A stretch of DNA of 64,000 bases from Nitrospirota bacterium (GCA_963818475.1 CAWFSF010000006.1:832001-896000); one strand, 5' to 3'; positions 20,724-54,951 are shown, counted from the first letter of the stretch. The notes: generated from the letters alone by a model not told the origin. A program made the numbers and translations.

Positions 20724-20771
20724 CACCTGTCAATTCTGACAGGTGACAGGTGACACCTTCTCCTATATAAT
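20724..20771 (+). promoter_or_regulatory. lux-box-like site 1 plus sigma70 promoter
   Basis: ACCTGTCAATTCTGACAGGT (20725-20744), GTGACA, 17 bp, TATAAT (20766-20771). Confidence 0.8.
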
Positions 20772-21048
20772 TCACGTGCATTGCATCAGCGACATTCTTC
20801 TCTTGGCGCAGTCGATCGTCCGGCTGTGAAAAATATGAATTCGCATTTGCACCGCGACGCTCTTTGACATTCAGCCTAGCTGTCCAACCTGCGAGATTCT
20901 GTTTGCCCTATGCGGCAAATATGGTAAGATACTGCCGTCTGCTTCGTTGACCGATCAATTGCAGATATTGGCTGGTTTGTGCGTCGCCGGCATTCCCTCA
21001 GTGTGGACAAAGCGACCGGGGTAATAATTATCTTGTGGGAGAACTATC

Positions 21049-22923
21049 GTGACGAAAATCGTCAGCAGTTTCACTATTTTTCTTGCCCTGGCCTTCTCCA
21101 TAACCTTCCCCCCCATTACCCTGGCGCAGCCTGATGAAGACAAAAAGTTCCTTCTCATGTATTTTAAGGAAGAGGAGCTCGTCGTGGAGTCGCCGACGCG
21201 CGGCAAAAAACCCCTCACCCAGGTTGCGGAGAACATTACCGTCGTTACCGCGGATGACATCAAACTCATGAACGCCCACACGGTCGCGGACGTGCTGAAT
21301 GGCGTGACCGGTGTGCAGGTGTTCATGACCGGCGGGCCGGGCAGTTCTGCACTGGCATCCATCCAAGGCTCGGATAACAGGCATGTTGCCATATTCATGG
21401 ATGGAATTCCTATGAACAACCTTAGCGACAATGTCACGGAGATCGGTGCTCTACCGGTCCAGAATATAGAAAAGATAGAGATCATCAAGGGACCGGCGTC
21501 TTCTGCCTGGGGCTCCTCCCTCGGCGGTGTAGTGAATATTATTACGAAGTCGGGGAGTGATGATGGATCCCGCAGCACGGTCTCTGCGAGCTACGGCGGA
21601 AAAAGCATGGCTGATATTAGAATGGAAACCCTTGGCAAAGAGGAACGATTCGGTTACTACGTCACCGCAGGCAGGCTTCAAACCGACGGTTTCAGGTCTC
21701 ATAATGATTTTTCCGGGAACAATGTTTACACAAAACTGACGTATGGCTTATCGGATAAAACGACCATCGGTTTTACTGTTGGGTATGACAACCTTTCGAG
21801 GGGTATTGCAGAATATCCTGACCCTGCTTACGATCTGTTTATTAATAATAAAATAGAGACACTGAAATCGTCTTTGATGGTGAAATCTTTGTTGAGTGAC
21901 GACGTAGAAGCTCAGCTCTCATTTTGGAAGTTGAAACAGAATAATGACATTTATTATTATAAGTTGAGTTCCGGAGTAGAGCTTTCAAAATACTACTATA
22001 AAGATAGCGGTTACGGCTCGAGTGCGAAACTCTCCTGGAAACACGATTTACATAATATCGTTCTGGGTGTGGACTTAGATTCTAAAAAACTTGAGTCTAA
22101 TACTATAGCTGACAATGATGGTTTAAAAAAATGGGCTTATTATATCAACGATACTGTTGCGATCGATCGCTTGTCACTTACGCCTGGCATCCGTTATGAT
22201 AAAACAAGCACGAACGGCGATTTCACCAGCCCGAGCCTTGGCGTTACTTATAAAATAACCGACTCATCTTTGCTCCGGGCATATGTTGCGCGGGGCTTCA
22301 GCATTCCGCCGCTTGGTTATACTTATGGAGATAACGATTTTTATATATCAAATCCAGACTTAAAAATGGAAAGAGTTTGGTCCTATGAGCTAGGAGCTGA
22401 ATCTACAGCGTTGCAATATGTCTGGATGAAGCTGTCCCTATTTCGGCACGATATCAGCGGCGGCATAAGACCAGAACCCGTATCAACGACTTCATCTACA
22501 CGGGTCAATGATGGAAGAGAGAGAAGGCAGGGAATGGAAATAGAGATGAAGTCACTGCCTCTCTACCATACTTTAATGGTTGCTGCAGTAACATTTATAA
22601 ACGCGAAAGATCTGGATACGGGTGAAACTATCGTAAACGTTCCTCAGCGAACATATGATATAGGCCTCCAGTTTGAGAATAATTCATTCAAGGCGCTGCT
22701 CAAGGGACATTATATTTATTGGAACGCTGATCCTACGTATAACGGGAAATACGATTCGATAATCGTGGATCTTCATGTTGCGAAGAATCTTTATGCGCAG
22801 CAAGATCAAGCGCTCGAAGCTTATTTTGATATCCATAATATATTCAACGGATCTCAATATCTTGTGGATGTATATACAAACCCGGCACGGTGGTTTGAAG
22901 CCGGCGTACGCTATACGTTCTAA
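21049..22923 (+). CDS. TonB-dependent receptor
   Basis: Signal peptide, plug motifs (IEKIEIIKGPASSAWGSSLGGVVNIITK), NPDLKME, C-terminal GVRYTF. Confidence 0.93.
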   Translation: MTKIVSSFTIFLALAFSITFPPITLAQPDEDKKFLLMYFKEEELVVESPTRGKKPLTQVAENITVVTADDIKLMNAHTVADVLNGVTGVQVFMTGGPGSSALASIQGSDNRHVAIFMDGIPMNNLSDNVTEIGALPVQNIEKIEIIKGPASSAWGSSLGGVVNIITKSGSDDGSRSTVSASYGGKSMADIRMETLGKEERFGYYVTAGRLQTDGFRSHNDFSGNNVYTKLTYGLSDKTTIGFTVGYDNLSRGIAEYPDPAYDLFINNKIETLKSSLMVKSLLSDDVEAQLSFWKLKQNNDIYYYKLSSGVELSKYYYKDSGYGSSAKLSWKHDLHNIVLGVDLDSKKLESNTIADNDGLKKWAYYINDTVAIDRLSLTPGIRYDKTSTNGDFTSPSLGVTYKITDSSLLRAYVARGFSIPPLGYTYGDNDFYISNPDLKMERVWSYELGAESTALQYVWMKLSLFRHDISGGIRPEPVSTTSSTRVNDGRERRQGMEIEMKSLPLYHTLMVAAVTFINAKDLDTGETIVNVPQRTYDIGLQFENNSFKALLKGHYIYWNADPTYNGKYDSIIVDLHVAKNLYAQQDQALEAYFDIHNIFNGSQYLVDVYTNPARWFEAGVRYTF

Positions 22924-22975
22924 TAACTTGAGCACTATTCGCTTTAAATTAAAAAAGGGGGGGAGGTGAGTGGGG

Positions 22976-23071
22976 ATGAAAAATCGTATTATCGTTTTAA
23001 AAAAAGGAGTTGATAAAAAAGGCGTTGTTTCCGGCGGCTGTTGTGCCATGGCTTTTATTCCGATCCGTTAG
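22976..23071 (+). CDS. Geopeptide-like RiPP precursor, 31 aa (MKNRIIVLKKGVDKKGVVSGGCCAMAFIPIR)
   Basis: Hand-translated; below the ORF-track size cutoff. GGAGGTGA RBS; basic IIVLKKGV leader and CC pair, directly upstream of a radical SAM gene. Confidence 0.85.
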   Translation: MKNRIIVLKKGVDKKGVVSGGCCAMAFIPIR

Positions 23072-23086
23072 TTAACGTACGTTTTA

Positions 23087-23120
23087 GAGAGGGAGGGCTG
23101 CTGGCTCTCCCTCGCATTTT
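23087..23120 (+). terminator. Stem-loop between precursor and maturase
   Basis: GAGGGAGGGC-TGCTG-GCTCTCCCTC followed by ATTTT. Confidence 0.55.
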
Positions 23121-23168
23121 ATTCTTATAAAAGCGACAGATTTTGATCTACCTCATGATGAAAAGACC

Positions 23169-24455
23169 ATGCCATTATCAAAATATACTAAAATATACCC
23201 CTCCCCAGATGGACCTGATTCCGTAATTCTTTATTCTACGAAAAATGCATCGGCACTGCTCGTCCCTTCCGGATCGATTGAAGACATCCAGAAAAACAGC
23301 TTGTCCGACGAGGAAAAAGAAACCCTCACGGATCACGGTTGCCTGGTAAAGGATGCCTCGGAAGAAAGACGTGAGATGCTCACCTTTATCCGGGAAGTGA
23401 ATTCTCTCGATAAAACGCTGAACTATATTGTTGTCTTGAACCTGGACTGCAATCTCGCATGCACATACTGTTTCGAGGGCGAAAGAAAGGGCAAGCTCTA
23501 CCTGTCCGATGAAACAGCCGACCAGTTCGTAGATTTCGTGAAGCGCAGCAGTGTCGGAAAAGAAGAGATCAATATCACCTTTTACGGCGGCGAGCCGCTC
23601 TTAAGCATGGAGCGCATTGCAGGGATCTCTGAAAAACTTCGTTTGTTCTCGGAACAGAAGGGACTTGCTTACGGCTTCTCGCTCGTTACCAACGGGACCC
23701 TGCTCACACCCAGGAATGTAAAGCGCTTAACGCCTCTCGGCTTGAAAAGCGCGAAAGTAACGCTCGATGGGCCGGAATATGTCCATGACATGTTCAGGCC
23801 ATTCAAATCCGGCGAAGGGTCCTTCAATATCATCATGCGGAATATCAAAGACGTCTGCGACATGATACGCATCCAGATCGGGGGTAATTATACGCAGGAA
23901 CATTTTCAGAAGTTTCCCCGGCTTCTTGACGTTCTCGCGGAAAAAGGCCTAACTCCCGACAAGATATATATGGTCAAATTCGACCCCGTGGTCAATGAAA
24001 GCGCAGAGTTTGCGCCGCGTGATTTTCATGACGGGTGCGCGTCGATCAATGAACCCTGGATCAGCGAAGCGAGCCTGTTCCTGCGGGAAGAGATATTGAA
24101 GCGGGGATACAAAACGCCGAAGATCATGCCGTCTCCCTGCGCCATTGAGCGGGAAAGCAGCCTGGTGGTCAACTACGACGGTGCACTGTACAAATGCCCG
24201 GGGCTGATCGGCAGGGCTGACTGCTGCGTGGGCGATCTCAAGAGCGGCTTGATCGACTACGGCAGCTCTCATGATCTCGACGCCTGGAAAAACGAGGAAT
24301 GCCTTGCCTGCGAATATCTCCCGCTCTGTTTCGGCGGATGCAAGTACATGAAGCTGCTGCGCGACGGCACCCTGCGCGGCATCAATTGTCAAAAAGAGTA
24401 TCTTGACCGGACCCTCGCCGGACTGGTGGCACAGGATATTAAATACGATCTATGA
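23169..24455 (+). CDS. Radical SAM/SPASM peptide maturase (geopeptide maturase-like)
   Basis: CNLACTYC, YGGEP, TNGTLL, TLDG; SPASM cysteines C...YKCPG...CLACEYLPLCFGGC...C. Confidence 0.92.
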   Translation: MPLSKYTKIYPSPDGPDSVILYSTKNASALLVPSGSIEDIQKNSLSDEEKETLTDHGCLVKDASEERREMLTFIREVNSLDKTLNYIVVLNLDCNLACTYCFEGERKGKLYLSDETADQFVDFVKRSSVGKEEINITFYGGEPLLSMERIAGISEKLRLFSEQKGLAYGFSLVTNGTLLTPRNVKRLTPLGLKSAKVTLDGPEYVHDMFRPFKSGEGSFNIIMRNIKDVCDMIRIQIGGNYTQEHFQKFPRLLDVLAEKGLTPDKIYMVKFDPVVNESAEFAPRDFHDGCASINEPWISEASLFLREEILKRGYKTPKIMPSPCAIERESSLVVNYDGALYKCPGLIGRADCCVGDLKSGLIDYGSSHDLDAWKNEECLACEYLPLCFGGCKYMKLLRDGTLRGINCQKEYLDRTLAGLVAQDIKYDL

Positions 24456-24572
24456 CCCGTTTCAATATCTGTGAAATCTGCGTAATCTGCGGATAATACA
24501 TTGACTTGAGCAGTTACTAAAAAAATCTTTTCACTAATCAGCAGGCTTTCGGATAGATAACACAGGCATTCC

Positions 24573-25485
24573 TTGATCAAATTGAATTCATACTTCGCCC
24601 GCAACCTTCTCCTCATCTTTTCCCTGTTCGCAGCGGTTCCGGTGCTCGGACCCGCGTCCGTGAACGCATGCGATGTTGTCGTAGTGAAAAGCGCCGACCT
24701 GAAACCCTACCGCGACGCGCTTCGAGGGTTTCGGGACGCGAGTTCCTGCACCGTGAGCGAAGTGGAATTGAACGACGATCGCGATCTTGAAAGAATACGT
24801 CAGAAAACGGCCCGATGTCGTGCTGGCGATCGGTACAACGGCCTTTAAGAAGCTCAGGCTGTTGAACGATGTTCCCGTTGTGTACGTTATGGCTGTCCTC
24901 TCCGAGGCGGACCGCGCACTTCCTCCGAATATTTCCGGCGTGAGCATGGAGATACCGCCTGCGGCCTATTTTGCCGCCATGAAACAGGTCTTTCCCTCGG
25001 CAAAACAGGTCGGTCTTTTGTACGATCCGCGCAACAGCGAGACCTTTGTCGAAGAAGCGTCACGCGACGCACGCGCCGCCGGTCTCGAGCTGTCGGACAG
25101 GAAGCTCCCCGATCCCGCAGGCCTGGCTGCTGCTCTCGGCAGCATGCGGGACACTATCGACATCCTGTGGATCTTGCCAGATCCGACCGTGGTAACGCCT
25201 GAAACGATCGATTACCTGCTGCGTTTTTCCATTCAAAACAATATTCCGCTCTTCGCTTTTTCAAAAAAATACGTCGAAATGGGCGCGATCGCTTCGCTCG
25301 ATGTTGACCCCTACGACATGGGCGCGCAGGCCGCGGACATAGCAAAGGGGATCGCCGCGGGGGGCAAAGGGTCGGTACGCGTATACGCGCGGAAAACCCG
25401 GCTTTCGATCAACGGGAAGGCCGCGAACAAAATGGGCGTCAAGATCGACAGCGAAACGGCGCGCAGGGTGGACCATGCCGATTAG
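24573..25485 (+). CDS. Periplasmic ABC-type substrate-binding-like sensor partner (one apparent frameshift)
   Basis: Signal peptide and PYRDALRGF, then after a shift near 24805 PDVVLAIG, GLLYDP, LWILPDPTV and DPYDMGAQAA. Confidence 0.8.
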
Positions 25486-26927
25486 GAGCTTTCGGAACAG
25501 GATCCGGGAACAATTCGGACTGAAGGTGTTCACCGCCTTCTTCGTCGTCATTGTTGTGCTCCTGACAACCTATACCGGCATCGGCGCTTTCCGTGAATGG
25601 CACAAGGCGAAGGACAAATTGAAGGAACAGGGGGAGATGCTTGCAGACCTGCTCTCACAGAATGTCCTCGTCGGGCTGTTCGCGGAGGACGAAACACTGC
25701 TCGAGGCGGCTGCGGCCGGAATGCTCGGTCTGAAAGACGTCACGTCGATCACGATCTATAACAGCGAGCTGAAGTTGCTCTATGCCGGTAAGCGGTCTTC
25801 GTCCGGGCAAAGCGCAACGCCCCTCCCTGGCGGACCGGTCCCCGGTCTTGGGGGTGTTTCCGGTCCCGACGTCGTCGAAACAGCGGACTCCTTTCAGTTC
25901 ACAAAACCCGTGTCGATCAGGTCGCGGTCCCGAGGCTGTCGAGTCCCTGTATTTCGACGTGCAGGGCACGGGGCGCAGCGGCCGGGTGATAGGATACGCG
26001 CAAGTCGTCCTGAGCAAGGACTCATTTCGCAAGGACATCGCATCGCTCGTGACGCGGAGAGCCGTAATGATGCTCCTGTTCATCGCTGCCGGCTGGGTCA
26101 TCATTTCTTTCGCAGTGAAGCAGGTCACGCGGCCGCTCCGGAACCTGACCGGGAAGGTGCGGTCGCTTGAATTGGGACTGCCCATCGAACCGGCTGTTGT
26201 GGAAACGGAGGATGAGATCGGGAAGCTCGCAGCGGCCTTCAACGCGATGGTTGAGGCGCGCGTCAGAGCGGAAAAATCCATGCGGGAGAGCGAGGAACGG
26301 GAACGGCACCTGATAGCGACCGACCTTCATGATTTCGTGGGACAGAACCTCGTGGCGTCGCAATACCAGCTCGGAGCATTGCGGAAGCTCATCTCCTCCC
26401 CTGAAGCGGCCGCACGCCTGGACGAGGCGCGCGAGCTGATCGCGCAGACCATCCAGTACACGCGGTCGCTCACCATCGAGCTCAGGTCTCCCGTGCTGGA
26501 GGAACTCGGCTTGCAATCGGCCATCGAATCGCTGGCCGAAAGTTATGAAACCACCCACGGGGTCCCTGTGCGGGTGGAGAATGACGGCTTGCCGATGGAG
26601 ATCAGCGACGAGACGGGCTATCTGCTCTTCCGGAGCGTGCGCGAGCTCCTGATGAACATCGTAAAGCACGCGAAGGCGACCGAAGCGAGGATCTCGGTGA
26701 CGAGGACGGGGGACAATGTCCGCATCGCGGTCAGGGACAACGGCATCGGGTTCATTGCAACGGCGGCGCCACAGCCCGGCCATAGCTTTGGTTTATTCAC
26801 CATCCGCGAGAGGCTACGAGGCCTTGGCGGGCATTGCGACGTCGAATCCGCGCCCGGCGCGGGGACAACGGTGGTCCTTACGGCGCCGCTCGTGAGATCC
26901 GGGGAACAGGGAAAGAGGACGCCATGA
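25475..26927 (+). CDS. HAMP HisKA_3 (NarX/UhpB-type) sensor kinase (one apparent frameshift)
   Basis: TM and periplasmic domain, shift near 25929, TM-HAMP (DEIGKLAAAFN), ERHLIATDLHDFVGQ, ELLMNIVKHA, DNGIG, FGLFTIRER. Confidence 0.88.
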
Positions 26928-27568
26928 TAAAGATACTTCTCGTTGACGACCACAAGATCGTGCGCGCCGGGCTCAGGGCGGTGATAGCCGGGCACCCGGA
27001 CATGACCGTTGTTGCCGAAGCGGGCGACGGCAGGACCGCCGTGGAACTCGCCGCCGAAGTGTCGCCGAACGTTATTATCATGGACATCTCCATGCCCGGT
27101 TTGAACGGAACGGAAGCGACCCGCAGGATACTGGAGGCGAACCCGGACGCCAGGATCATAGCGCTGTCGATGCATCTTGAACGGCGCATCGTGCTCCAGA
27201 TGCTGGGCGCCGGCGCAAAAGGATATTTATTGAAAGACGGCGCCGATGACGAGGTGATCGACGCCATTCTCGCTGTTACGCAGAATGCGACCTACCTGAG
27301 TCCGAGGATCAGCAACATGGTCTTGAGGGACTACGTCGAACGGGTCTCGAAAAATGAACTGTCCTCGATCTCCCTTCTGTCGTCGCGGGAGCGGGAAGTT
27401 CTGCAGCTTCTGGCCGAGGGGAAAAAGACAAAGGATATCGCCACGCTCCTTACGGTAAGCATAAAAACCGCAGAATTCTACCGCCAGCAGATCATGGAAA
27501 AACTGGACGTTCATACCATCGCCGAGCTTACGAAGCTGGCTATCCGCGAAGGCCTGACCTCGCTGTAA
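26924..27568 (+). CDS. NarL/FixJ-family response regulator
   Basis: ILLVDDH, MDISMP, GYLLK, LSSREREVLQLLAEG, IMEKL. Confidence 0.95.
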   Translation: MIKILLVDDHKIVRAGLRAVIAGHPDMTVVAEAGDGRTAVELAAEVSPNVIIMDISMPGLNGTEATRRILEANPDARIIALSMHLERRIVLQMLGAGAKGYLLKDGADDEVIDAILAVTQNATYLSPRISNMVLRDYVERVSKNELSSISLLSSREREVLQLLAEGKKTKDIATLLTVSIKTAEFYRQQIMEKLDVHTIAELTKLAIREGLTSL

Positions 27569-27682: not shown

Positions 27683-27730
27683 CACCTGTCAGTTCTGACA
27701 GGTGACAGCGAACAAAAAATCACTTACAAT
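27683..27730 (+). promoter_or_regulatory. lux-box-like site 2 plus sigma70 promoter
   Basis: ACCTGTCAGTTCTGACAGGT (27684-27703), GTGACA, 17 bp, TACAAT (27725-27730). Confidence 0.8.
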
Positions 27731-27856: not shown

Positions 27857-28864
27857 ATGGACATCGAATTTCACTATTACATCACCGCTCTTATAGCACT
27901 TCGCGCCGGATTTACTAAGGAAGAGGCCTATATACTTGCCTATGCTTCGCAGCATGTTGACGATAATACCGACGTCTTTAAGATCAATCAGGGTACCGCC
28001 GAGGCATACAGCAATTACATAAGTCAAACGTCAAACATACTAAAAGCGGAAAAGGAGCTAATGCAAATCTATCCCGTTTTCCACTTTATGCCGGGGAACA
28101 GGGACGAGATTGAATGTGAAGGGGCCATGCGATGTGACGGAAAACTTCATGTTCTCAATACGATACCGGACAATAGCAATGCCTGCGCCGTCCTGCAGGC
28201 GGCTTTCGACGACGGCAATCTCTACCGCATAGGGATAGCAACGCATATGTACGCAGATACGTTCGCGCATCAGAACTTTGTCGGCTACTACGAATCGTTC
28301 AATGCCATGAAAGGCGTTCTCGGTAAAGCTATTCCCGATGTGGGGCATGCGGACGCCCAACACAACCCCGATCTGCCGGGGCTCATCTGGGATGATAAAC
28401 GCCTTATCAACAAGAACAAGGATGTCTGCAACAGGGACCGTTTCCTCAAAGCGGCAGAACGCATCTTTGAGCAGTACCGGCGACATAAAGATCCCCACTG
28501 CTCGCCTGAAGTCATTACAGCGGACAAGACCTCGCTTATGGCCACTATTACTTATGCGATCGGTGAAACCGGCGATCATGCGGTCAACGATCAGGAGCGA
28601 AAGAATCGCATAGCCCGGTATAGAAAAGCCATTGGTGAAGATTTTAAGGACTATGACGAAAAGGAGTGGCTTGGCGAGGCAATTGAACGAAAAGGCCTCC
28701 TTGCCCCGATCAATCCGTGGCCCTCGTATGCATGGAAAGCCGATCACACGGACAGCCACTGGTTCAAGTTCCAGGAAGCGGTCAAGAACCATCAATGGTT
28801 CGCCAAGGACAATGTCCTGAGCCCCATCACCAAAAATCTTCAGCTTGATCGATTTTATAATTGA
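27857..28864 (+). CDS. Conserved hypothetical protein (DUF6765-like; His/Asp motifs reminiscent of zinc phospholipase C/S1-P1 fold)
   Basis: MDIEFHYY, ASQHVDD, FHFMPG, GIATHMYADTFAHQNF, GHADA; AGGAGG RBS. Confidence 0.6.
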   Translation: MDIEFHYYITALIALRAGFTKEEAYILAYASQHVDDNTDVFKINQGTAEAYSNYISQTSNILKAEKELMQIYPVFHFMPGNRDEIECEGAMRCDGKLHVLNTIPDNSNACAVLQAAFDDGNLYRIGIATHMYADTFAHQNFVGYYESFNAMKGVLGKAIPDVGHADAQHNPDLPGLIWDDKRLINKNKDVCNRDRFLKAAERIFEQYRRHKDPHCSPEVITADKTSLMATITYAIGETGDHAVNDQERKNRIARYRKAIGEDFKDYDEKEWLGEAIERKGLLAPINPWPSYAWKADHTDSHWFKFQEAVKNHQWFAKDNVLSPITKNLQLDRFYN

Positions 28865-29460
28865 GGACTACCTTACGGATGGAGTGTTCCCTTTCCATGA
28901 TACATGAATACGAGATCAACGGTGTGACCCTGCGGACCGGGGATATCATCTGCACGCATGACGGGGGCGCCCCGATTCTGGAGGGCCAGCTCTGGCATTT
29001 TGTCGGGAACCTGATCCCCGGCGATGTCGACCATGTCGCTCTTTATCTTGGACCGGGCGGTCGCTGCATAGAGGCAGGGCCGAAAGGGGTCAACATATTC
29101 GAAATGAAGAGCAGGACCTGGGATTCCGTGAATATGCGGGACCAGCGCGGCCCGGTTGTGGATACGTTCTACGGCGTCGCCTGCCCGGTAGAGGGCAGAG
29201 GTCTTGCGGAAGAAAAAAAAGCCGAGATCCGGGAGAGCGTTGCCCGGTACTGCATTGCGCAGGCAGGAAAGCCGTACAATTTGAATTTTATGAATTCGGA
29301 AACAGAAGATACGTTTTATTGCAGTCAATTAGCGTGTCTGGCGTATCTGAAAAGCGGCATCATTTTGAACACGGACCTGGGGGTGCCTCTGGTTCCCGGG
29401 ACGCACAGCATCATCTTTCCGCAGGAGATATGGAGCGGGTGTGTAAATAAAAAGGCATGA
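28861..29460 (+). CDS. Permuted papain-like NlpC/P60 (YiiX/YebB-like) enzyme
   Basis: GDII...DHVALYLG...GKPYN...FYCSQL, with His preceding Cys; start uncertain. Confidence 0.8.
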   Translation: MRTTLRMECSLSMIHEYEINGVTLRTGDIICTHDGGAPILEGQLWHFVGNLIPGDVDHVALYLGPGGRCIEAGPKGVNIFEMKSRTWDSVNMRDQRGPVVDTFYGVACPVEGRGLAEEKKAEIRESVARYCIAQAGKPYNLNFMNSETEDTFYCSQLACLAYLKSGIILNTDLGVPLVPGTHSIIFPQEIWSGCVNKKA

Positions 29461-42618: not shown

Positions 42619-43248
42619 GTGTCCCTTGAATTCTGGCTCCTCTACGCAGTCACCGTCTTCCTCGCCTCGATCAGCCCCGGTCCCAGCATGCTGCTTGCCC
42701 TGACGCACGGCATGAAGTACGGTACGCGGCGGACCATGACGACGGCGGCGGGCAACGTCGTCGCTTCGCTGCTCCAGGCGGCGGTTTCCATCGCAGGTCT
42801 GGGCGCAGTCCTGACCCTGTCAGAGGGCGTGTTCTCGGTCGTCCGGTGGCTGGGGGCGGGGTATCTCATCTACCTTGGCATCGTCACGTGGCAGTCTTCA
42901 TCGCTCTTGCAGGCAGGAGAGGAGGGCGGCGCGCCCAGTCCCGCGCTGACGCTTCGCAGCATGTTCCTCCGGTCGTTCTTCGTTGCAGCGGGGAACCCGA
43001 AGGCGATCATCTTCTTTACGGCGCTCTTCCCCCAGATCGTCGGCAGCGGCGTGCGGCGGCTCTCCGAAGTCTCGATCCTGCTTGCGACGCTGGCGCTCAT
43101 CGCCTTCTTGTGCTTCATGCTCTATGCAACGGCTGGTCAGCGCATCCTTGCGCTCTTCTCCCGGCAGGCCGCCGGCAGACACCTGAACCGGATCGCCGGC
43201 GGCGCTTTTATCGGGGCCGGTATCGGGCTCGCCGTAAGCAGGCGATGA
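42619..43248 (+). CDS. LysE/RhtB family translocator
   Basis: SPGP, RWLGAGYLIYLG, NPKAIIFFTALFPQ, NRIAGG. Confidence 0.92.
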   Translation: MSLEFWLLYAVTVFLASISPGPSMLLALTHGMKYGTRRTMTTAAGNVVASLLQAAVSIAGLGAVLTLSEGVFSVVRWLGAGYLIYLGIVTWQSSSLLQAGEEGGAPSPALTLRSMFLRSFFVAAGNPKAIIFFTALFPQIVGSGVRRLSEVSILLATLALIAFLCFMLYATAGQRILALFSRQAAGRHLNRIAGGAFIGAGIGLAVSRR

Positions 43249-43471
43249 GAGACATGAATATCTTCCGGATTGCCCTTCTTATTTCAGTTCACTGAAAAAA
43301 CCCTCTTGTCTCAGTAGACAGCAATTCTTGCACCCTCCCCTTAGTTCCCTCCCATCGAAGGAAGAGGAGCGTTAATCTTGCTGCGGGGTAGCTCATCATG
43401 AGCCTGTTCCGTTGCGATCCTTGTTCTGGGTCCCGGCCGCATTGCCGGTAATGGCCTTGTTGCGTGCGATC

Positions 43472-43536
43472 GCTACCAGGGAAAAATTCCGGAAAATTAG
43501 GGATTCCCCGGTTGTCATCCGGTCGGAAAGCTGTTA
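43472..43536 (+). promoter_or_regulatory. Second conserved upstream motif, copy 1
   Basis: GCTACCRGGGAAAAA-N5-RAAAATTAGGGATTCCCCGGTTG-N12-AAAGCTGTTA, colinear with 54286-54350. Confidence 0.65.
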
Positions 43537-43623
43537 CAGATATGCATAGAGGGTGAATATAAAGAAAAGACCTTCTTATCGTATCCGGTCATACCTGAGA
43601 CTGGAATAATCGAGGATATCTCC

Positions 43624-44112: not shown

Positions 44113-44160
44113 CACCTGTCAGTTTTGACAGGTGACAAACGTTAAAAATATTCATATAAT
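44113..44160 (+). promoter_or_regulatory. lux-box-like site 5 plus sigma70 promoter
   Basis: ACCTGTCAGTTTTGACAGGT (44114-44133), GTGACA, 17 bp, TATAAT (44155-44160). Confidence 0.8.
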
Positions 44161-44203
44161 TATTTTTAGGTAGTTGCCAAACATCCCACCAGGAGGCAGA
44201 AGA

Positions 44204-48829: not shown

Positions 48830-50742
48830 GTTCGCAGTAACAACTGATTATCTCGCGGGTTCAAGTCCCGCCCAAGGAGTTGTCCGTACACCTTGGTAGC
48901 ACGAGGGAGCGGCGTCTGAGCAATCAGAGGTCGTGAGTTCCCAAACGGCAAAGCTACAGGCCGCAGCGAAAGCGAACCTACACGTAGCCTCGTAACTTAT
49001 TCGGAGATGCCGACCTTGTGGTCAAATGGGGAAGGCCGATGCGCGCTGATTCAGACAACGGAATCGATCTGTGCGATCTCCCGGGGTAGCAGGGGCGGCA
49101 TGCAGCGGAAGATAAGCAGTCCAGTGCTGGAGACCCCATACAGTGATGTTAGAGGAACATCAACCGGTGCGTATAAGGAAACGAAAACGCACTGGGCTGT
49201 ATCGGGAGTCGGAGGGGTCCATAGTATCGTTTGAAGGTATGGGACAACATAACCCTGCCCGAGAAAAGGGACCCTGCTTTGTTCACGCAACCGAAGGAGA
49301 GAGGATGAGGGGATTGCAGAGATGCTAACAACCCCAGATACAATCAGGACACTCCAGAGGAAGCTCTACCGTAAGGCCAAGCAAGAACCGGCCTACCGCT
49401 TTTACGCGCTCTACGACAAGATACACCGGGCCGACATCCTCAGTCACGCCTACCATCTTGTCAGGGCCAACAAAGGAAGCGCCGGCATCGACGGCGTCAC
49501 CTTCGAGGCCATAGAGACCGGAGAAGGGGTAATCGCCTTTTTGGCGGAGCTGCAAGAAGCACTGAAGAGCAAGACCTATGCACCAAACCCTGTAAAGCGC
49601 GTCATGATCCCCAAAGGAGACGGCACAGAGCGTCCCTTGGGAATCCCGACCATTAGGGACAGGGTGGCCCAGATGGCCGTAAAACTGGTCATCGAACCGA
49701 TATTTGAAGCGGATTTTATAGACACCTCATACGGATTCAGACCCAAGAAGTCGGCCCATGATGCAATCGAAGACATATCGTATGCCCTTAACTGCGGTTA
49801 TACGGAAGTCATCGACGCCGATGTGTCCAGGTACTTCGACACCATTCCCCATGCCAAACTCATGGCCGTGGTCGCCGAGCGCATCGTTGACAGTGCGATT
49901 CTGCACATTATCCAGATGTGGCTCAAGGCCCCGGTTATGGAAGTGGACAAGGACGGAACGAAGCGCAACATCGGCGGCGGCAAGGCAAACACCAAAGGAA
50001 CACCGCAGGGCGGTGTCATCTCGCCGCTCCTGGCCAATCTCTATCTGCACCTGTTAGATAGGATATGGCATAAGAAGAAGCTTCAGTATAGGCTCGAAGC
50101 GCGTCTTGTCCGGTATGCCGACGATTTTGTCGTGCTGTGCAGAAAGGGAACTGAGCAGCCGATGGCGGTTGTGCGCCGGGTGCTCGAACGACTGGGACTT
50201 GTACTCAATGAGAACAAGACCCGCATGGTGAACGCCAAGCAAGAAGGCTTCAACTTCCTTGGATTTGAACTTCGTATGGGGAAAAGTCGGAGAACGGGCA
50301 ACCTTTACCCCCTTATACAACCGTCACGAAAAGCCCTGAAGAAGATCAAAGACAGCGTTACCGCTCTTACACACAGGCGGATGACGCCGAAGCCGCTTAC
50401 TATGATAATCGAAGATATCAATACCGCCCTCCGGGGCTGGGTCGGGTACTTTCATTACCGCAATAGCAGCAAGGCGTTCAATCGTCTCAAGTTTCATGTG
50501 GAAGCGCGAGTGCGCACGCATCTGCGAAAGCGGCATAAGATCAAAAGCAGGGCAGCGGGGTTTACCAGGTTCACCAACAGGTCTTTGTACGAGAAGTATG
50601 GGCTCTATAAAGTGCCGACGACAGCGGGCTGGCTGAAGGCGCATGCCTTGCGGTGAAGAACATCGGAAAGCCGTGTGCGGGAAAACTGCATGCACGGTTT
50701 GATGAGGGAGGGCTGGTCAATACGACCAGCTCTCTACTCTAC
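48830..50742 (+). mobile_element. Group II intron
   Basis: 5' GTTCG; RT ORF; domain V AGCCGTGTGCGGGAAAACTGCATGCACGGTT; domain VI ending CTACTCTAC. Removing it restores a palindrome matching 46151-46210. Confidence 0.92.
49322..50656 (+). CDS. ltrA: Group II intron reverse transcriptase/maturase, no endonuclease domain
   Basis: RPLGIPTIRDR, SYGFRP, GTPQGGVISPLLAN, RYADD, FLG and LRGWVGYF motifs. Confidence 0.96.
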   Translation: MLTTPDTIRTLQRKLYRKAKQEPAYRFYALYDKIHRADILSHAYHLVRANKGSAGIDGVTFEAIETGEGVIAFLAELQEALKSKTYAPNPVKRVMIPKGDGTERPLGIPTIRDRVAQMAVKLVIEPIFEADFIDTSYGFRPKKSAHDAIEDISYALNCGYTEVIDADVSRYFDTIPHAKLMAVVAERIVDSAILHIIQMWLKAPVMEVDKDGTKRNIGGGKANTKGTPQGGVISPLLANLYLHLLDRIWHKKKLQYRLEARLVRYADDFVVLCRKGTEQPMAVVRRVLERLGLVLNENKTRMVNAKQEGFNFLGFELRMGKSRRTGNLYPLIQPSRKALKKIKDSVTALTHRRMTPKPLTMIIEDINTALRGWVGYFHYRNSSKAFNRLKFHVEARVRTHLRKRHKIKSRAAGFTRFTNRSLYEKYGLYKVPTTAGWLKAHALR

Positions 50743-51019: not shown

Positions 51020-51067
51020 CACCTGTCAGTTCTGACAGGTGACAAGTGCTAAAAATATTCATATAAT
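51020..51067 (+). promoter_or_regulatory. lux-box-like site 6 plus sigma70 promoter
   Basis: ACCTGTCAGTTCTGACAGGT (51021-51040), GTGACA, 17 bp, TATAAT (51062-51067). Confidence 0.8.
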
Positions 51068-51123: not shown

Positions 51124-51492
51124 ATGCGCACCTTACTCCTGGTAGAAGACAGTGCTCCTCTCCGCAAGACGCTCCAATCCATCCTGGAGGCGTCGGGTTT
51201 TAGCGTCATCGCGTGCAGCGACGGGCAGGTGGCCATCGAACAGGCGAGTCACCGGGACGTCGACGTAATGCTCGTCGATTACCGCATGCCCGGCCCCAGC
51301 GGGGCCGAGGTCACAAAAATCATACGAGAACGCCATCCTCGGGCCTGTATCATCGGGATGAGCCTTGAGGACCGGAAAAACAGCTTTCTTGCCGCAGGCG
51401 CAGACGACTTTTTGTTGAAGCCTTTCGCCATCGGGGATGTCATCAGGATCGCAGAAACCTGTGTTTTTCAACAGGAAGGCATCGGCAAGTAA
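51124..51492 (+). CDS. Single-domain response regulator
   Basis: LLVED, VDYRMP, AGADDFLLKPF. Confidence 0.88.
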   Translation: MRTLLLVEDSAPLRKTLQSILEASGFSVIACSDGQVAIEQASHRDVDVMLVDYRMPGPSGAEVTKIIRERHPRACIIGMSLEDRKNSFLAAGADDFLLKPFAIGDVIRIAETCVFQQEGIGK

Positions 51493-51546
51493 TCTTTTGG
51501 CGTGTCATTCACAAGTGATTAACCCTAACCGATAAGGAGGCAAGCC

Positions 51547-52752
51547 ATGGGAAAGAAAATCTTTTGTACGTTCGCCGTTCTGGTACTTGCATTTTGTTTT
51601 GTCCGTAGTTCTTATGGAGAATACACGCTCACATTAAATGTTCCCCTCTACGGACAGGACACGGGATACTATTGCGGTGCGGCAAGTTCGCAGATGATCA
51701 TGATGGGGTACCCGAGTCTTGCAAGCCGACAATGTTATACCCAGGATTTCATTTACAATGCCATTCAGGCAACTAAGCAGGACAACGGGTTTTATACCGA
51801 TCCTGATGGTTTGAGAGACACCCTCATGAATCTTAATCCACCGCCGGCGGCAGGACACTTTAGCCTATTCAGCAATGCAAACCGCGATACAATAATGCAT
51901 GACATGCTTTACTGGATGTCGATACGAAGCTACCCTTCAGCCGCGCTCATTAATGGCGGCGCGCATTGGGTCGTAATTACCGGGTTTCAGACAGACATTA
52001 ATCCGCAAACAGGAAACGCGGTTCTACAGTCCATAGATGTCAACGATCCCGCTCCGGCAGACATCGCCCCGCATGACAACCCCTGTACAACAGCGAATGA
52101 GGGCAATGAGGGTGGGACCATAAGACATGTCACTGGTGCATCCTGGTTCAGCAATGACTGGCAAAATCCCAACGGATACGGCACCAAATGGCTCAATCAG
52201 TATGTTGCCGTCGTAGAGCCGCCCTCGGTGAAAGGAAGCATAACCGCAAAACAGGAGGTAGAAAAAGGCGAGGTCATATCTGCCGAGGAGGCTTTGAAAC
52301 TGTCCCTACGGCATGTAAAAGAACGAAAACTTGCCGAAAGAAAGGAGTTCAGGTACCTCAGCAAGACCAGGCCGACAAGGGCGCTGCTCGTAAACAAACG
52401 ACACAAAGGATACTATATCGTCCCATTCGAGGACGAAAACAGGCGCGCGCCGCTGGCCGTCTTACTGAACGCATATACGGGAGATTTTCAGGAAATCGGC
52501 GCATTTCGCCACCCCATCGAATATCTTTCGCAGCAGGAGGCTGTCGACATCGCTGTGTGTTCCATTCGGAAGAAGCCCGCTCGACGACCTGTCGTGGAAC
52601 TAGAGTATGCCGTTTCGGAACAGATGAAGAGCCGCTATCGGCCGTTGTGGAAGGTGACAATGGCAGAGGAAAAGACCCCGATCATTCGTTACATTTCCCA
52701 GCTTGGAGAGGTATTTACTGAAGTTACTCCGGTACCGATCGGCGGCGACTAG
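51547..52752 (+). CDS. Exported C39-like (papain-fold) cysteine peptidase
   Basis: Signal peptide; VPLYGQ....CGAAS, HWVVITG and VNDP catalytic pattern. Confidence 0.75.
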   Translation: MGKKIFCTFAVLVLAFCFVRSSYGEYTLTLNVPLYGQDTGYYCGAASSQMIMMGYPSLASRQCYTQDFIYNAIQATKQDNGFYTDPDGLRDTLMNLNPPPAAGHFSLFSNANRDTIMHDMLYWMSIRSYPSAALINGGAHWVVITGFQTDINPQTGNAVLQSIDVNDPAPADIAPHDNPCTTANEGNEGGTIRHVTGASWFSNDWQNPNGYGTKWLNQYVAVVEPPSVKGSITAKQEVEKGEVISAEEALKLSLRHVKERKLAERKEFRYLSKTRPTRALLVNKRHKGYYIVPFEDENRRAPLAVLLNAYTGDFQEIGAFRHPIEYLSQQEAVDIAVCSIRKKPARRPVVELEYAVSEQMKSRYRPLWKVTMAEEKTPIIRYISQLGEVFTEVTPVPIGGD

Positions 52753-52888
52753 CCGGATAACCTCACTCGGGTCGCGGAAAGTAGGTTAGGCTGTCTGGCT
52801 CAGGCTATGTGGACAACCTCCAGATCGTTCTTCCAATCTAATGGACCCCTGTGCCGCCCAGATGCATTTTTTAAACGTGAGGTAAACC

Positions 52889-54121
52889 ATGGTTCCTGAT
52901 GAGAGCGAGAATGGGAGCGGCGTTTTGAACGCGATCGCCGATCCTGTATTGATCATAGACAAGGACTTCAAGCTCGTTTTTGCAAACAATGCGGCGCTCG
53001 ATCTTTGGAGCGTGAGCCGCGACCAGGTCCTCGGCAAAGAATGCCGCGACCTGTCCCCCCGCTGCATCCTGCCCTGTGCGCCGGATAACTGCCCGCATCA
53101 GGAGGTCTTCGCGACGAACAGGCCGCTGCAGGTCAAGCGTACATTCTGCTGCACGGACGGAAATGAGAAGATATTCAGCATGACTGCCTCGCCGTTTACG
53201 GACGCCGACGGCAAGGTCGTCCGGATGATCGAGGTGCTGCGCGATATTACCGAGGCGGAAAATGCGGCGAAGGCCCTGCAAAAGGGCGAGGCGCCCATCA
53301 CGAAAGTACGGATGCTCGAAGAGCAGCTGCTGCATGCCCATAAGATGGCGGCCATGGGCACGCTCGCCGGAGGCATTGCGCATGATTTCAACAATATCCT
53401 GTTCGCGATCATCGGCTATGGCAGCCTCATCCAGATGACGCTGAAGCCCGATGATCCCTCCCTGCCTCATCTGAAGGAAATGCTCGATGCCGGGGAACGG
53501 GCGGCAAGGCTTACGCGGGGGCTTCTTGCGTTCAGCAGGAAAGGGTCGATGGGTCTGAGGGCAGTGAAGGTCACCGACCTCATTGGGGACTTCAGAAATA
53601 TGCTCGAGCGGATCATCGGCGAAGACATCGAGTTTCGCGTCGCAGCCGACCCCGACCCGGGAGAGCTGATCGTTCAGGCCGATACGGGCCAGATCGAACA
53701 GGTGTTGATGAACCTTGCCGCGAACGCACGGGACGCCATGCCGCGCGGAGGGACGCTGACCATAGAAACGGAACGCGTGACCATGGACAGCGGCTTCATC
53801 GCGCTGCACGGCTTCGGCCAGCCGGGCAGCTATGCCGCGATCGTTGTCACGGACACGGGCACGGGAATGGCCGATGCGACCAGGAGGAGGATCTTTGAGC
53901 CCTACTTTACCACCAAGGAACCGGGAAAGGGCACCGGGCTCGGTCTCTCCATAGCGTTCGGCATCGTCAAGCAGCATAGTGGCTTTCTCGAATGTCAAAG
54001 CGAACCGGGGAAGGGGACGACGTTCACGATCTATCTCCCTGTTGCAGCCGCGGCTGAACAATCCTTCTCCCAATCAAAGTTGCGAGACACACGACAAAAG
54101 CGATGTAAAACTCTGATTTGA
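52889..54121 (+). CDS. Cytoplasmic PAS sensor histidine kinase
   Basis: Cys-rich PAS, LAGGIAHDFNN, MNLAANARDAM, FTTKEPGKGTGLGL. Confidence 0.92.
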   Translation: MVPDESENGSGVLNAIADPVLIIDKDFKLVFANNAALDLWSVSRDQVLGKECRDLSPRCILPCAPDNCPHQEVFATNRPLQVKRTFCCTDGNEKIFSMTASPFTDADGKVVRMIEVLRDITEAENAAKALQKGEAPITKVRMLEEQLLHAHKMAAMGTLAGGIAHDFNNILFAIIGYGSLIQMTLKPDDPSLPHLKEMLDAGERAARLTRGLLAFSRKGSMGLRAVKVTDLIGDFRNMLERIIGEDIEFRVAADPDPGELIVQADTGQIEQVLMNLAANARDAMPRGGTLTIETERVTMDSGFIALHGFGQPGSYAAIVVTDTGTGMADATRRRIFEPYFTTKEPGKGTGLGLSIAFGIVKQHSGFLECQSEPGKGTTFTIYLPVAAAAEQSFSQSKLRDTRQKRCKTLI

Positions 54122-54285
54122 GACGACTATATTTTTAAGGCGTGTGGATAACTTCCGGTTACTCCCTCTGATTTAAAAAAATCCTTCATTTTGTAAACAA
54201 ACATCAACTTATCAATGAATTACGTTGCGATGCCTCATTGGAATCCAGGCTGCATTGCCTATAAATAGGCTTGCTGCGTCTGATA

Positions 54286-54350
54286 GCTACCGGGGAAAAA
54301 GTGCGAAAAATTAGGGATTCCCCGGTTGCAAAGCGGTTCTAAAGCTGTTA
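54286..54350 (+). promoter_or_regulatory. Second conserved upstream motif, copy 2 (upstream of luxR)
   Basis: Colinear 65-bp match to 43472-43536. Confidence 0.65.
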
Positions 54351-54444
54351 TTGATACTAAAGACTGAAAACAGTTTGTTGCAGCGGAGATTCTCAAGCGA
54401 GTTGTTCGAAGCAGCCGAATATCCTTCAAGGGGGCAAATCCGAT

Positions 54445-54951
54445 ATGTACGATCTGTCGAAAAAAGACGCCAACAGCCTGATCGAGATCATTCATGAGAG
54501 CCTGAACTGCAATACTTTGCACGCATTCCACCGGCTTGTCCAAAAACTTCGGCAACTGACGCCGGATAATCTCGGGATCGACTTTTCGCACAATGCGGGA
54601 GAGCATGCATCTAATGAAATCGAGCAAATCTTCCCTGGTAAAAATATCGCTGGTCCCTTCAGCCGGGCCGAAATCATAATGAATTATGCCTTGCCGCATC
54701 TTCGCCAGGCCCTTTCCCGAGTTACTAAGGAAGAAAGTCAAAAACCAACAACGATGCTCTCTTGCAGGGAGAGGGAGGTACTGCGATGGATGAGCGAAGG
54801 GAAGTGCACCTGGGACATATCCCGGATCCTGCGGATCACGGAACGGACCGTATACTATCATAGCCAGAACATCATGCATAAGCTCGAGGCGACAAGCCGT
54901 TCCCACGCGGTTTCCATCGCCCTTAAACGGGGGATCATCGAGCTTCATTGA
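54445..54951 (+). CDS. LuxR-family regulator with quorum-sensing-type HTH and shortened N-terminal domain
   Basis: REREVLRWMSEGKCTWDISRILRITERTVYYH...KL; 168 aa with no Trp or DP motif in the N-terminal region. Confidence 0.88.
   Translation: MYDLSKKDANSLIEIIHESLNCNTLHAFHRLVQKLRQLTPDNLGIDFSHNAGEHASNEIEQIFPGKNIAGPFSRAEIIMNYALPHLRQALSRVTKEESQKPTTMLSCREREVLRWMSEGKCTWDISRILRITERTVYYHSQNIMHKLEATSRSHAVSIALKRGIIELH

Follow-up and report, generated by a model that had tools for sequence, protein, structure and literature searches.

A LuxR-type regulator without an autoinducer pocket and a multiplied lux-box promoter cassette in an uncultured Nitrospirota bacterium

Which protein reads the lux-type boxes of an uncultured Nitrospirota bacterium, and is a peptide signal its input? 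The question is raised by one 64,000-nucleotide stretch of the genome (the window), in which a first-pass annotation had described a geopeptide operon of six genes, six lux-type boxes and a pocket-less LuxR of 168 aa. All three are present in the window (Table 1). The annotation had joined them in one loop, in which the imported peptide acts on luxR and LuxR acts back on the peptide operon. The source genome (G000), of 91% completeness and 6% contamination, may hold a LuxI or a LuxR that was missed; it was compared with 63 other genomes of its order (64 in total). The explanation preferred here, with a probability of about 0.62, is that a pocket-less descendant of an AHL-type LuxR acts without lactone on about 28 lux-box promoter cassettes, including that of its own operon.

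Table 1. Features of the window, with positions counted from its first nucleotide
Feature	Position	Strand	Remarks
Box 1 cassette	20724-20771	+	22-bp palindrome 20724-20745; -35-like GTGACA 20743-20748; -10 TATAAT 20766-20771
TonB-dependent receptor, geopeptide cassette gene 1	21049-22923	+	Plug and barrel domains; gene order shared by relatives
Geopeptide precursor, 31 aa, CC core	22976-23071	+	Like peptide in 8/9 loci
Geopeptide radical SAM maturase	23169-24455	+	TIGR04280, 585 bits vs cut-off 400
ABC_sub_bind periplasmic binding protein, two frames	24573-25485	+	Pieces 24573-24848 and 24787-25485
Sensor kinase, two frames (N-terminal sensor part, HAMP, HisKA_3, HATPase)	25475-26927	+	Pieces 25475-26170 and 25782-26927
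NarL-type response regulator (REC and GerE)	26834-27568	+	PF00072 and PF00196; likely start ATG at 26924
Box 2 cassette	27683-27730	+	Before DUF6765 (27857-28864) and C92 peptidase (28861-29460)
Box 3 cassette with conserved leader	35286-35333	+	Before 189-aa ORF 35407-35976
Box 4 cassette, one mismatch	42064-42111	+	Before 61-codon ORF and LysE exporter 42619-43248
Box 5 cassette	44113-44160	+	Before trypsin-like protease/non-specific endonuclease fusion 44174-46069
Box 6 cassette	51020-51067	+	GTGACA-17-TATAAT, 11/12 to consensus
Box 6 operon	51124-54121	+	Three genes
Stand-alone receiver, box 6 operon	51124-51492	+	66% ortholog after box in L167
401-aa protein, box 6 operon	51547-52752	+	
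Cytoplasmic PAS kinase, box 6 operon	52889-54121	+	56-58% orthologs before luxR in L166, L168, L169
Conserved non-coding stretch before luxR	54130-54444	+	Core motif about 54289-54326
168-aa LuxR-type regulator without autoinducer pocket (luxR)	54445-54951	+	GerE only, no Autoind_bind
Terminator-like hairpin after luxR	54986-55006	+	
Diverged remnant, 3' end of second luxR copy	55226-55306	+	72% over 18 aa at C6:887234-887287

Lux-box promoter cassettes in the window and in the genome

The pattern ACCTGTCA-N4-TGACAGGT was found six times in the window (five exact and one with one mismatch), where 0.22 occurrences are expected by chance, and none of 100 shuffles contained six or more. The lux-box-like promoter before the geopeptide operon and its five repeats, as annotated, are thus confirmed. 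All six boxes are followed at a fixed spacing by gTGACA, then 17 bp, then TAtAAT or TACAAT. The box 1 cassette carries an extra TGACAGG repeat, and the box 4 cassette has a duplicate at C6:280691.

The regulon had been described as one of six promoters; the genome-wide count is about 28. Twenty-seven palindromes were detected in G000, 24 exact and 3 with one mismatch, compared with 0 for the reversed-pattern control, and these resolve into 28 oriented cassettes. Each is laid out as box, gTGACA, 17 bp and TAnAAT, with an invariant GTGACA that overlaps the palindrome by 3 bp. The box centre lies near -43.5 from the inferred start, which is the geometry of activating lux boxes and typical of class II activation by LuxR proteins. 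None of the 28 boxes is located inside an open frame of at least 150 aa, as compared with 88% of 300 random sites, and for 21 of the 28 the nearest ORF downstream shares the strand of the cassette. The cassettes are promoter-like because they lie outside long frames, are mostly co-oriented with an ORF, and keep a fixed spacing.

The repeated unit measures 70-90 nt and often includes a common leader; its left edge, at the box, is sharp. When its flanks are clustered, 24 groups result upstream and 25 downstream, or about 24 unrelated contexts. Among the loci behind a cassette are an Rhs toxin, nucleases, SIR2- and kinase-type defence-like genes, surface proteins, signalling genes, and one of the three geopeptide operons of G000. 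Exact boxes number 24 in G000 and one each in four genomes, with none in the other 59 of the order; orthologous box sites are found in G012, G013, and G014.

The same 22-bp palindrome stands directly upstream of luxI, beside full-length LuxRs, in G051, G062, and G395, and the same arrangement upstream of luxI was seen in the loci L172-L175. Boxes with at most two mismatches occur in 27 of the 77 LuxR loci of named genomes, and 11 of these 27 also have luxI. The G000 palindrome presumably resembles las/rhl and lux boxes as well. Judged by homology, it is a real lux box, because relatives carry it before luxI beside full-length LuxRs, and the name given to the boxes in the annotation was appropriate.

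The short LuxR and its neighbourhood

The LuxR at 54445 had been annotated as lacking its AHL-binding core, and this was borne out. The GerE helix-turn-helix was matched at residues 104-159 (PF00196, E 1.5e-19), and the autoinducer-binding domain PF03472 was not matched in the protein. In the alignment with a relative's full-length LuxR, residues 1-38 pair with 11-48 and residues 42-166 with 128-254. Since the alignment skips from 48 to 128, about 80 pocket residues are missing, and the missing stretch is the one that holds the conserved pocket residues. The structure model predicts helices only and no beta-strands, with residues 41-73 disordered and a four-helix bundle at 107-161. The top Foldseek hits are CviR, RhlR, SdiA, QscR, and LasR. 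The lack of PF03472, the unaligned pocket stretch, and the all-helical model together indicate that the pocket was lost.

The best G000 match to the LuxR of G062 is the short LuxR, with 120 bits; the second scores 77 bits, and the geopeptide operon's own regulator 42.7 bits (blastp). In the tree, with a midpoint root only, the short LuxR is sister to LuxRs having both luxI and the box (support 99/92). By these sequence comparisons, the protein descends from within the AHL-receptor clade and is the best candidate for the box binder, as had been proposed. Relative to the G010 ortholog, dN/dS is 0.30 in the N-terminal block and 0.14 in the C-terminal block. Twelve further short forms were found in metagenomes (114-210 aa, GerE only), with a nearly invariant recognition helix, so that at least 13 forms are known. 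These dN/dS values and the further forms argue against a pseudogene and mark the short LuxR as a subfamily that has been maintained. Its anatomy, homology, distribution, and purifying selection are direct observations.

The annotation had seen no LuxI in the window, and none was found in the window or the genome. The PF00765 search matched no protein in G000; the same search also matched none of 14 control genomes, and tblastn is therefore the stronger test. With the LuxI proteins of three relatives as queries, no tblastn hit in G000 was better than E = 0.06. PF03472 was not found anywhere in the 91% complete genome, and 7 of the 8 GerE proteins of G000 have receiver domains or are pieces of such proteins. 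The absence of PF03472 and LuxI and the receiver-type nature of these seven leave no apparent rival receptor in G000.

Between the box 6 operon and luxR, prediction gave neither a sigma-70-like promoter nor a terminator. The existence of the different conserved motif behind which luxR was said to lie was confirmed. Further copies stand before the PilZ gene at 43624 and at C6:281069, and two other organisms have it conserved in front of luxR. In L167, the order is box, receiver gene, leader, and 168-aa luxR; L171 has a box immediately after a luxR form of 166 aa. A box-driven receiver gene precedes luxR in two organisms. Because luxR is found downstream of a box-driven operon, synteny suggests autoregulation of luxR, which would be a simpler feedback than a peptide loop. 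G010 has the regulator (210 aa) and no box in 74% of its genome, so the pairing in the genus is not clean. No short LuxR was found in G013 (92% complete, one orthologous box), G014 (a near-box with one mismatch), or G012 (one box), and no box was seen in the available sequence of L168 and L169, which carry the 209-210-aa type.

The geopeptide operon

The operon belongs to the geopeptide RiPP type in both respects examined, a maturase above the TIGR04280 cut-off and an adjoining short peptide with a CC motif; no NCBIfam model matched the 31-aa precursor itself. Its regulator, with a PF00072 receiver and a PF00196 helix-turn-helix, is of the NarL/FixJ type. All six annotated genes are present on the + strand, but the binding protein and the kinase are each split between two frames. 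The shift in the binding protein falls near 24790-24848 at an A run, both breaks fall on short homopolymer runs, and the intact binding proteins in relatives' loci measure 306-311 aa. The sensor kinase has no PAS domain, unlike the kinases of relatives. The enzyme described as radical SAM/SPASM is indeed a radical SAM maturase, but Pfam gave no SPASM domain, and that label comes only from the nearest NCBIfam family names.

The co-occurrence of the six components, which the annotation had put forward for checking across genomes, was found in the relatives' loci inspected as a single conserved cassette. The geopeptide cassette is a conserved stand-alone module. A maturase above the cut-off occurs in 21 of the 64 genomes; besides G000, only G051 among these 21 has an exact box, at luxI on another contig. 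The annotation had named a lack of co-occurrence in other genomes as a ground for refutation, and for the combined circuit this lack was observed. No box-like word stood out upstream of five geopeptide loci of relatives, and the other two G000 loci have no box. The sole regulator-type palindrome found for geopeptide operons, CTACCCGAACGGGTAG, stands before three sister operons and is absent near luxR. No exporter was seen within the cassette; the annotation had noted none in the window.

The conservation of the six-gene cassette makes it very likely that peptide, importer, and sensor work together, a link that conserved gene order alone suggests. No published work on geopeptide function was found, and the word "geopeptide" was absent from the literature searched. 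The operon would be a target of the box regulon, and a role as its input is not supported.

Mechanism, alternatives, and known systems

We infer binding, activation as the direction of control, co-transcription, and input as follows. The 168-aa protein comes from an ancestral AHL receptor of the LuxR type; it has lost the core of the signal pocket and retains two N-terminal helices, the long pre-linker helix, and the DNA-binding helix-turn-helix. Without lactone, it would bind CACCTGTCA-N4-TGACAGGTG as a dimer; dimerisation without the N-terminal domain is assumed. From its place about 43.5 bp before the inferred starts of the near-identical cassettes, it would activate in the class II manner. 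The cassette has been copied in front of the roughly 24 unrelated accessory loci, the one geopeptide operon included, and luxR at the end of a box-driven operon would provide positive autoregulation. The neighbouring PAS kinase and receiver, or else the conserved leader, would be a likelier route of input than the geopeptide system. Quite tentatively, a quorum-sensing receptor may have been turned into a regulator with a new input in trans, either from the box-operon receiver and PAS kinase (in effect a split response regulator) or from the geopeptide module, while copies of the regulator's promoter cassette built a new one-species regulon of about two dozen accessory and conflict genes.

The cassettes themselves can be read in two other ways. 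Their match to the sigma-70 consensus is very good, so that they might fire without an activator, and promoter strength near consensus fits repression as well as activation. The short LuxR could bind at the -35 edge of such strong constitutive promoters and hold costly accessory genes off as long as its level or activity stays high. The 17-bp spacer, the GTGACA overlapping the palindrome, and the many toxin-like or nuclease-like targets are consistent with this, and repressors occur within the LuxR family. It is nevertheless unlikely: the box position matches activating lux boxes, the homologous boxes of relatives precede luxI, where activation is the rule, and luxR itself would be shut off if it is read from the box promoter. 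That the cassettes are selfish repeats without a regulatory role would account for one sharply edged unit in unrelated contexts. However, the unit lacks a second terminal repeat and has a perfect -35/-10 geometry, and co-orientation with downstream genes, orthologous sites in three genomes, and identity with the luxI promoter boxes of relatives leave this reading scarcely any probability.

Two further readings assign the peptide a role. In the loop of the first-pass annotation, geopeptide import by the TonB receptor would act through the binding protein, the kinase, and NarL on luxR, and so on the boxes. Its six-gene cassette is conserved, one copy lies behind a box, and the luxR upstream element is conserved. 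However, the operon and the luxR upstream DNA have no regulator site in common, and the luxR motif is shared with the PilZ gene instead. The distribution of maturases and boxes, the boxless sister loci, and the frameshifted readings of binding protein and kinase also argue against the loop. No maturase was found in G010, which has the regulator, and the conserved neighbours of luxR are the PAS kinase and receiver rather than the geopeptide operon. We regard the loop as improbable. Similarly doubtful is a direct wiring of peptide sensing to the boxes by a 277-aa response regulator (C6:250932-251765) encoded in the second geopeptide operon. This protein combines a receiver with a degenerate first helix-turn-helix, and its tail shares 46% identity with the C-terminal part of a quorum-sensing LuxR. 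It ranks second among the G000 matches to the G062 LuxR (over 97 aa), and its type occurs in G013 and G014, each with a box or near-box and no short LuxR found. Yet its operon type carries CTACCCGAACGGGTAG upstream in 3 of 3 cases, and no exact box is present in G018, which has the type, or in G002, G005, and G040, where a LuxR-like hit lies 3.5-4 kb from the maturase. Its recognition helix also differs from those of the box-associated LuxRs, with which the short LuxR agrees.

The preferred reading, a pocket-less LuxR with multiplied boxes, is a new variant of LuxR regulation. With the AHL LuxR/LuxI systems (LuxR, LasR, RhlR, TraR, CviR, SdiA), the short LuxR shares the C-terminal helix-turn-helix and the preceding long helix. 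The presumed target is likewise a palindrome of 20-22 bp centred about 43 bp before the start, and close relatives have luxI behind the same box. It differs in having neither an autoinducer-binding domain nor a LuxI found in G000, and in a regulon made of copies of a single promoter cassette. A laboratory N-terminal deletion of Vibrio fischeri LuxR reportedly activates without signal, and by analogy the short LuxR may act at a lux box without its ligand domain. Its deletion is, however, natural and internal, with about 40 N-terminal residues retained, and the protein is under purifying selection in a family of several forms. LuxR solos resemble it as LuxR-type regulators in genomes without LuxI. 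By the definition in PMC4338825, a solo combines the autoinducer-binding domain with the helix-turn-helix, and the short LuxR, without the former, falls outside it.

The geopeptide operon matches the known TIGR04280 system in maturase and peptide; in the loci inspected, it is joined in fixed order to a TonB receptor, a binding protein, a kinase, and a regulator. In methanobactin-type operons, a ribosomal peptide and its modifying enzyme stand beside a TonB-dependent importer and a periplasmic binding protein. The gene sets are alike, but the geopeptide maturase is of another family, and a two-component system takes the place of the sigma/anti-sigma pair.

The short LuxR and its descent

The 168-aa short LuxR carries the GerE domain only. 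Its residues 1-38 correspond to residues 11-48 of the LuxR from the relative G062 (47% identity), and its residues 42-166 correspond to residues 128-254 (49% identity). The stretch that holds the conserved pocket residues is missing from the short LuxR in the alignment. The AlphaFold model, with a mean pLDDT of 83, contains no strands. These features support the ligand-free LuxR proposed in the first-pass annotation. The model is composed of helices at residues 6-20 and 25-38, a disordered segment at 41-73, a long helix at 74-99, and a DNA-binding bundle of four helices at 107-161. CviR, RhlR, SdiA, QscR, and LasR were its closest structural matches.

Among the GerE proteins of the source genome, only the short LuxR is without a receiver; the remaining seven are whole or fragmentary response regulators. 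This genome, which is 91% complete, yielded no Autoind_bind domain. In the same genome, no LuxI was found via tblastn with three LuxI sequences from relatives, and a profile search, whose controls were also unmatched, returned none. In a tree of 60 relatives, the short LuxR pairs with a 210-aa form of a Nitrospirae MAG, and this pair is sister (support 99/92) to the LuxRs of L090 and L040, two loci where luxI and a perfect box are also present.

The short LuxR was compared with its ortholog in the relative G010, a 210-aa protein with a degenerate middle. The dN/dS values were 0.18/0.59 within the first 52 codons and 0.10/0.70 within the last 104. A search of 5.8 billion proteins found 12 further forms of 114-210 aa with 58-81% identity, all of them GerE only. 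The N-terminal 40 residues and the recognition helix are almost invariant among these forms; the middle is variable or absent. The short luxR is not a dead gene. No paper on a natural LuxR without the autoinducer-binding domain was found by title or abstract.

The box and its promoter cassette

The window contains six sites of the palindrome ACCTGTCA-N4-TGACAGGT, where chance predicts 0.22; a count of six was reached in 0 of 100 shuffles. At all six sites, the 22-mer CACCTGTCA-N4-TGACAGGTG is followed by ACA, completing a -35-like GTGACA, then by 17 bp and TATAAT or TACAAT. The box centre is located 31.5 bp upstream of the -10 hexamer and at about -43.5 from the inferred start. Genome-wide, 27 palindromes were found, including 24 exact and three with one mismatch; the reversed control pattern was found nowhere in the source genome. 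With one palindrome extended on both sides, there are 28 oriented cassettes, and one more site with two mismatches has the same -35 and -10. The six-promoter regulon noted from the window is instead a set of about 28 cassettes across the genome.

None of the 28 boxes is located inside an open frame of at least 150 aa, versus 88% of 300 random positions, and in 21 of the 28 cases, the cassette and the first downstream ORF of at least 90 aa share a strand. These results indicate that the cassettes are promoters. In most cassettes, the conserved stretch has an abrupt edge at the box and includes the spacer, and it often reaches about 25 nt beyond the -10. The flanks fall into 24 clusters within 300 nt upstream and 25 clusters from +95 to +600 and are mostly unrelated, which indicates that one unit of 70-90 nt was placed ahead of many different genes. 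The leader word AAATTGTCGAG was considered as a separate regulon and rejected; six of its 12 copies in the source genome are within cassettes, so the word belongs to the cassette. Judged from the sequence, the match of the cassette to the sigma-70 consensus is so good that repression would be a live alternative, rivalling activation.

Within the window, the cassettes precede the geopeptide operon; genes for a DUF6765 protein and a C92 peptidase; an ORF of 189 aa; an ORF of 61 codons together with a LysE exporter; a fusion of protease and endonuclease; and an operon in which an unknown protein is encoded between a receiver and a PAS kinase. Elsewhere in the source genome, cassettes stand ahead of genes for an Rhs-repeat protein, HNH and SIR2_2 proteins (two of each), a Ser/Thr kinase, transglutaminase-like and NlpC/P60 proteins, a phospholipase A1, a GGDEF protein, and large proteins with Ig or NHL repeats; many other downstream ORFs have no family assignment. 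Of the 62 downstream proteins submitted to PADLOC, only a minority gave defence-like matches (HNH, PD-T4-6-like kinase, PDC-S25/ThsA-like SIR2, and AriA/OLD-like ATPase), and the label of a defence regulon was rejected. The target set is best called accessory, with a conflict and cell-surface flavour.

The exact 22-mer was searched among 64 genomes of the order. The source genome has 24 copies, G012, G016, G051, and G062 have a single copy each, and the other 59 have none. In both G051 and G062, the sole box is directly upstream of a LuxI-type synthase gene, and a full-length LuxR with Autoind_bind and GerE domains is convergent alongside. A box before luxI beside a full-length LuxR was also found in G395, which belongs to a different family of the phylum, and in the metagenome loci L172-L175. 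These matching boxes before luxI agree with the earlier identification of the promoter motif as a lux box. Among 77 LuxR-relative loci of named genomes, a box with no more than two mismatches is present in 27, luxI in 24, and both in 11; in these 11, the box is typically just ahead of luxI. On the side opposite luxI, the G051 and G062 boxes are followed by GTGAC, 17 bp, and TATAGT, which indicates that the cassette layout pre-exists in ordinary quorum-sensing loci. The small ORFs after this divergent promoter show no relationship between the two genomes. The single exact boxes in other families (loci L072 and L075-L078) were rejected as lux boxes; they have the look of terminator hairpins with A and T runs. 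No LuxI or LuxR is near the box of L073.

The luxR locus and the geopeptide operons

No sigma-70-like promoter or terminator was predicted between the end of the PAS kinase at 54121 and the luxR start, and a terminator-like hairpin is found directly 3' of luxR. The metagenome locus L167 contains, in order, a perfect cassette, a receiver gene (66% identity to the gene at 51124), the same conserved non-coding stretch as ahead of the window's luxR, and a 168-aa luxR. In L171, a cassette begins immediately after a 166-aa luxR form. In L166, L168, and L169, of the 209-210-aa type, the PAS kinase ortholog, fused to a receiver, is located just upstream of luxR, and no box was seen in the stretch examined. 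The box counts in L167, L168, and L171 cover 10 kb flanks. Gene order suggests that a box promoter would drive luxR transcription at least in part; if true, this would be positive autoregulation. From the same layouts, we infer that the PAS kinase and the receiver are conserved functional partners of luxR.

Ahead of luxR, three organisms (the source genome, G010, and L167) share a conserved non-coding element some 110 nt long, whose core is TACC.GGGAAAAA.T.CG.AAAATTAGGGATTCCCCGGTTG; a paralogous copy precedes a PilZ gene. Rfam gave no match on 54100-54470 up to E 5, and thus no known RNA family before luxR; at the gathering score, the group II intron was the only match. An RNA hairpin before luxR was considered and rejected, since the inverted-repeat arms do not co-vary and three of four copies have an A-C mismatch.

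The geopeptide operon encodes a TonB-dependent receptor, a 31-codon ORF with a CC-containing core at its end, a radical SAM enzyme, an ABC_sub_bind periplasmic binding protein, a sensor kinase with HAMP and HisKA_3 domains, and a response regulator with REC and GerE domains. The radical SAM enzyme scored 585 bits with TIGR04280, the geopeptide maturase model, for which the cut-off is 400 bits. All six genes named in the first-pass annotation are present; in both the binding protein and the kinase, the reading frame shifts at short runs of A or C, so that each spans two overlapping frames, and the SPASM domain assigned to the maturase has no Pfam match. Such splits also affect other genes of the source genome, for example a TonB receptor (L081), a maturase broken into three pieces (contig C2), and an intron reverse transcriptase (L016). 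The split frames of the operon are thus equally likely to reflect assembly indels or real decay. The homopolymer splits suggest indel errors in this seven-contig assembly, and such errors may depress its completeness estimate.

Maturases above the cut-off were found in 21 of the 64 genomes of the order. The inspected geopeptide loci share the gene order of receptor, peptide, maturase, binding protein (306-311 aa), kinase (615-643 aa), and regulator, and the peptide type MKNRIVVLKKGV[DE]KK...CC...IP was found in eight of nine. The components do belong together as one unit. Three geopeptide loci are present in the source genome, and only the window's copy has a box. A second operon type ends with a hybrid response regulator in which a receiver and a degenerate first helix-turn-helix are joined to a LuxR-like tail with 46% identity to the last helix and DNA-binding domain of a quorum-sensing LuxR. 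The palindrome CTACCCGAACGGGTAG is upstream of all three geopeptide operons with the 277-aa hybrid regulator. In the source genome, it occurs only at the hybrid-regulator operon, with tandem variants close by.

The pair of a TonB importer and a binding protein presumably resembles peptide metal carriers as much as signal systems. The literature search found no paper with the word 'geopeptide' and none joining radical SAM, RiPP, TonB-dependent, substrate-binding protein, and histidine kinase. This is the first description, from gene context, of the geopeptide cassette as a conserved peptide/importer/sensor module, and it makes the function of the geopeptide, as a signal or a metal carrier, testable.

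Coordinates of features in the window, in contigs C2 and C6 of the source genome, and in metagenome loci L167 and L171
Feature	Location	Strand	Description
Extra TGACAGG copy at box 1	window 20745-20759		Gives three direct TGACA repeats in a row; at the geopeptide operon only
Geopeptide operon	window 21049-27568	+	Six consecutive genes, all on this strand
Frame splits	window 24787-24848, ~25940-25960		At short homopolymer runs, as in many genes of the source genome (also L081, L088, L016)
Apparent inserted island	window 36694-40360		Downstream of box 3; IS110-family transposase, then PIN_12 and TIR-domain proteins; lowest G+C of the window (0.40)
61-codon ORF	window 42404-42589		Between box 4 cassette and LysE-type exporter; several cysteines and Lys-rich N-terminal half by eye; could be a small secreted peptide
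~110-nt element	window 43420-43540, 54240-54360; C6:281069		Non-coding
Group II intron	window 48862-50742		Rfam domains 1-4 and 5-6 matched; directly after a 783-aa protein with a CFI-box-CTERM-like match
Group II intron ORF	window 49322-50656		Reverse transcriptase and maturase domains
luxR	window 54445-54951	+	Short LuxR
Probable remnant of a second luxR copy	window 55226-55306		80-nt diverged copy of the luxR 3' end, ~270 nt past the real gene, just before ORF 55365
Second intron reverse transcriptase	downstream of cassette C2:833477		Two frames
Hybrid response regulator, 277 aa	C6:250932-251765 (= L081:8433-9266)		Also in L082, L087, and L052 (331-aa ORF in L052)
Tandem near-copies of NarL-type 7-2-7 palindrome (GTACCCGTATGGGTAG)	C6:256393-256424		~5 kb past the second geopeptide operon; by sequence, may be a further target of the hybrid regulator
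Neighbours of short LuxR forms	L167:3289-5256; L171:3456-9522		Include OLD-family ATPase/TOPRIM protein, HerA-type helicase, NERD-UvrD helicase; gene types common in defence islands

Regulator, box, and the meaning of the regulon

The regulator and the box were compared among the closest relatives. G013 (92% complete) carries a single cassette, orthologous to a site of the source genome; G014 has a near-box orthologous to a different site, and G012 a single cassette of its own in that layout. Searches of these three genomes returned no short LuxR. G010 has the regulator, and the box is absent in the 74% of the genome covered. The pairing within the genus is not clean, and incomplete bins may explain the mismatch. 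Binding of the box by the short LuxR is a prediction, and its dimerisation, the co-transcription, and the input are likewise putative.

The first interpretation had a modified peptide acting through the window's NarL-type regulator on luxR and then on the lux-box genes. Its lux box and its ligand-free LuxR stand, and its scale was too small. The peptide-to-LuxR link is unsupported: nothing connecting the NarL-type regulator with luxR was found, and CTACCCGAACGGGTAG is absent near luxR in the search of the source genome. The reading supported herein is a LuxR receptor lineage without the pocket and, in one species, a regulon made by copying one promoter cassette.

LuxR receptors are textbook regulators that need their signal to fold and act. 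The short LuxR looks like a natural lineage that dropped the pocket yet remained under selection, with at least 13 pocket-less forms in uncultured Nitrospirota-like organisms, and its cognate promoter went from one copy to about 28 in one species. If confirmed, the case shows that a private master switch can be made from a communication circuit, and that copying of a single promoter cassette can enlarge a regulon.
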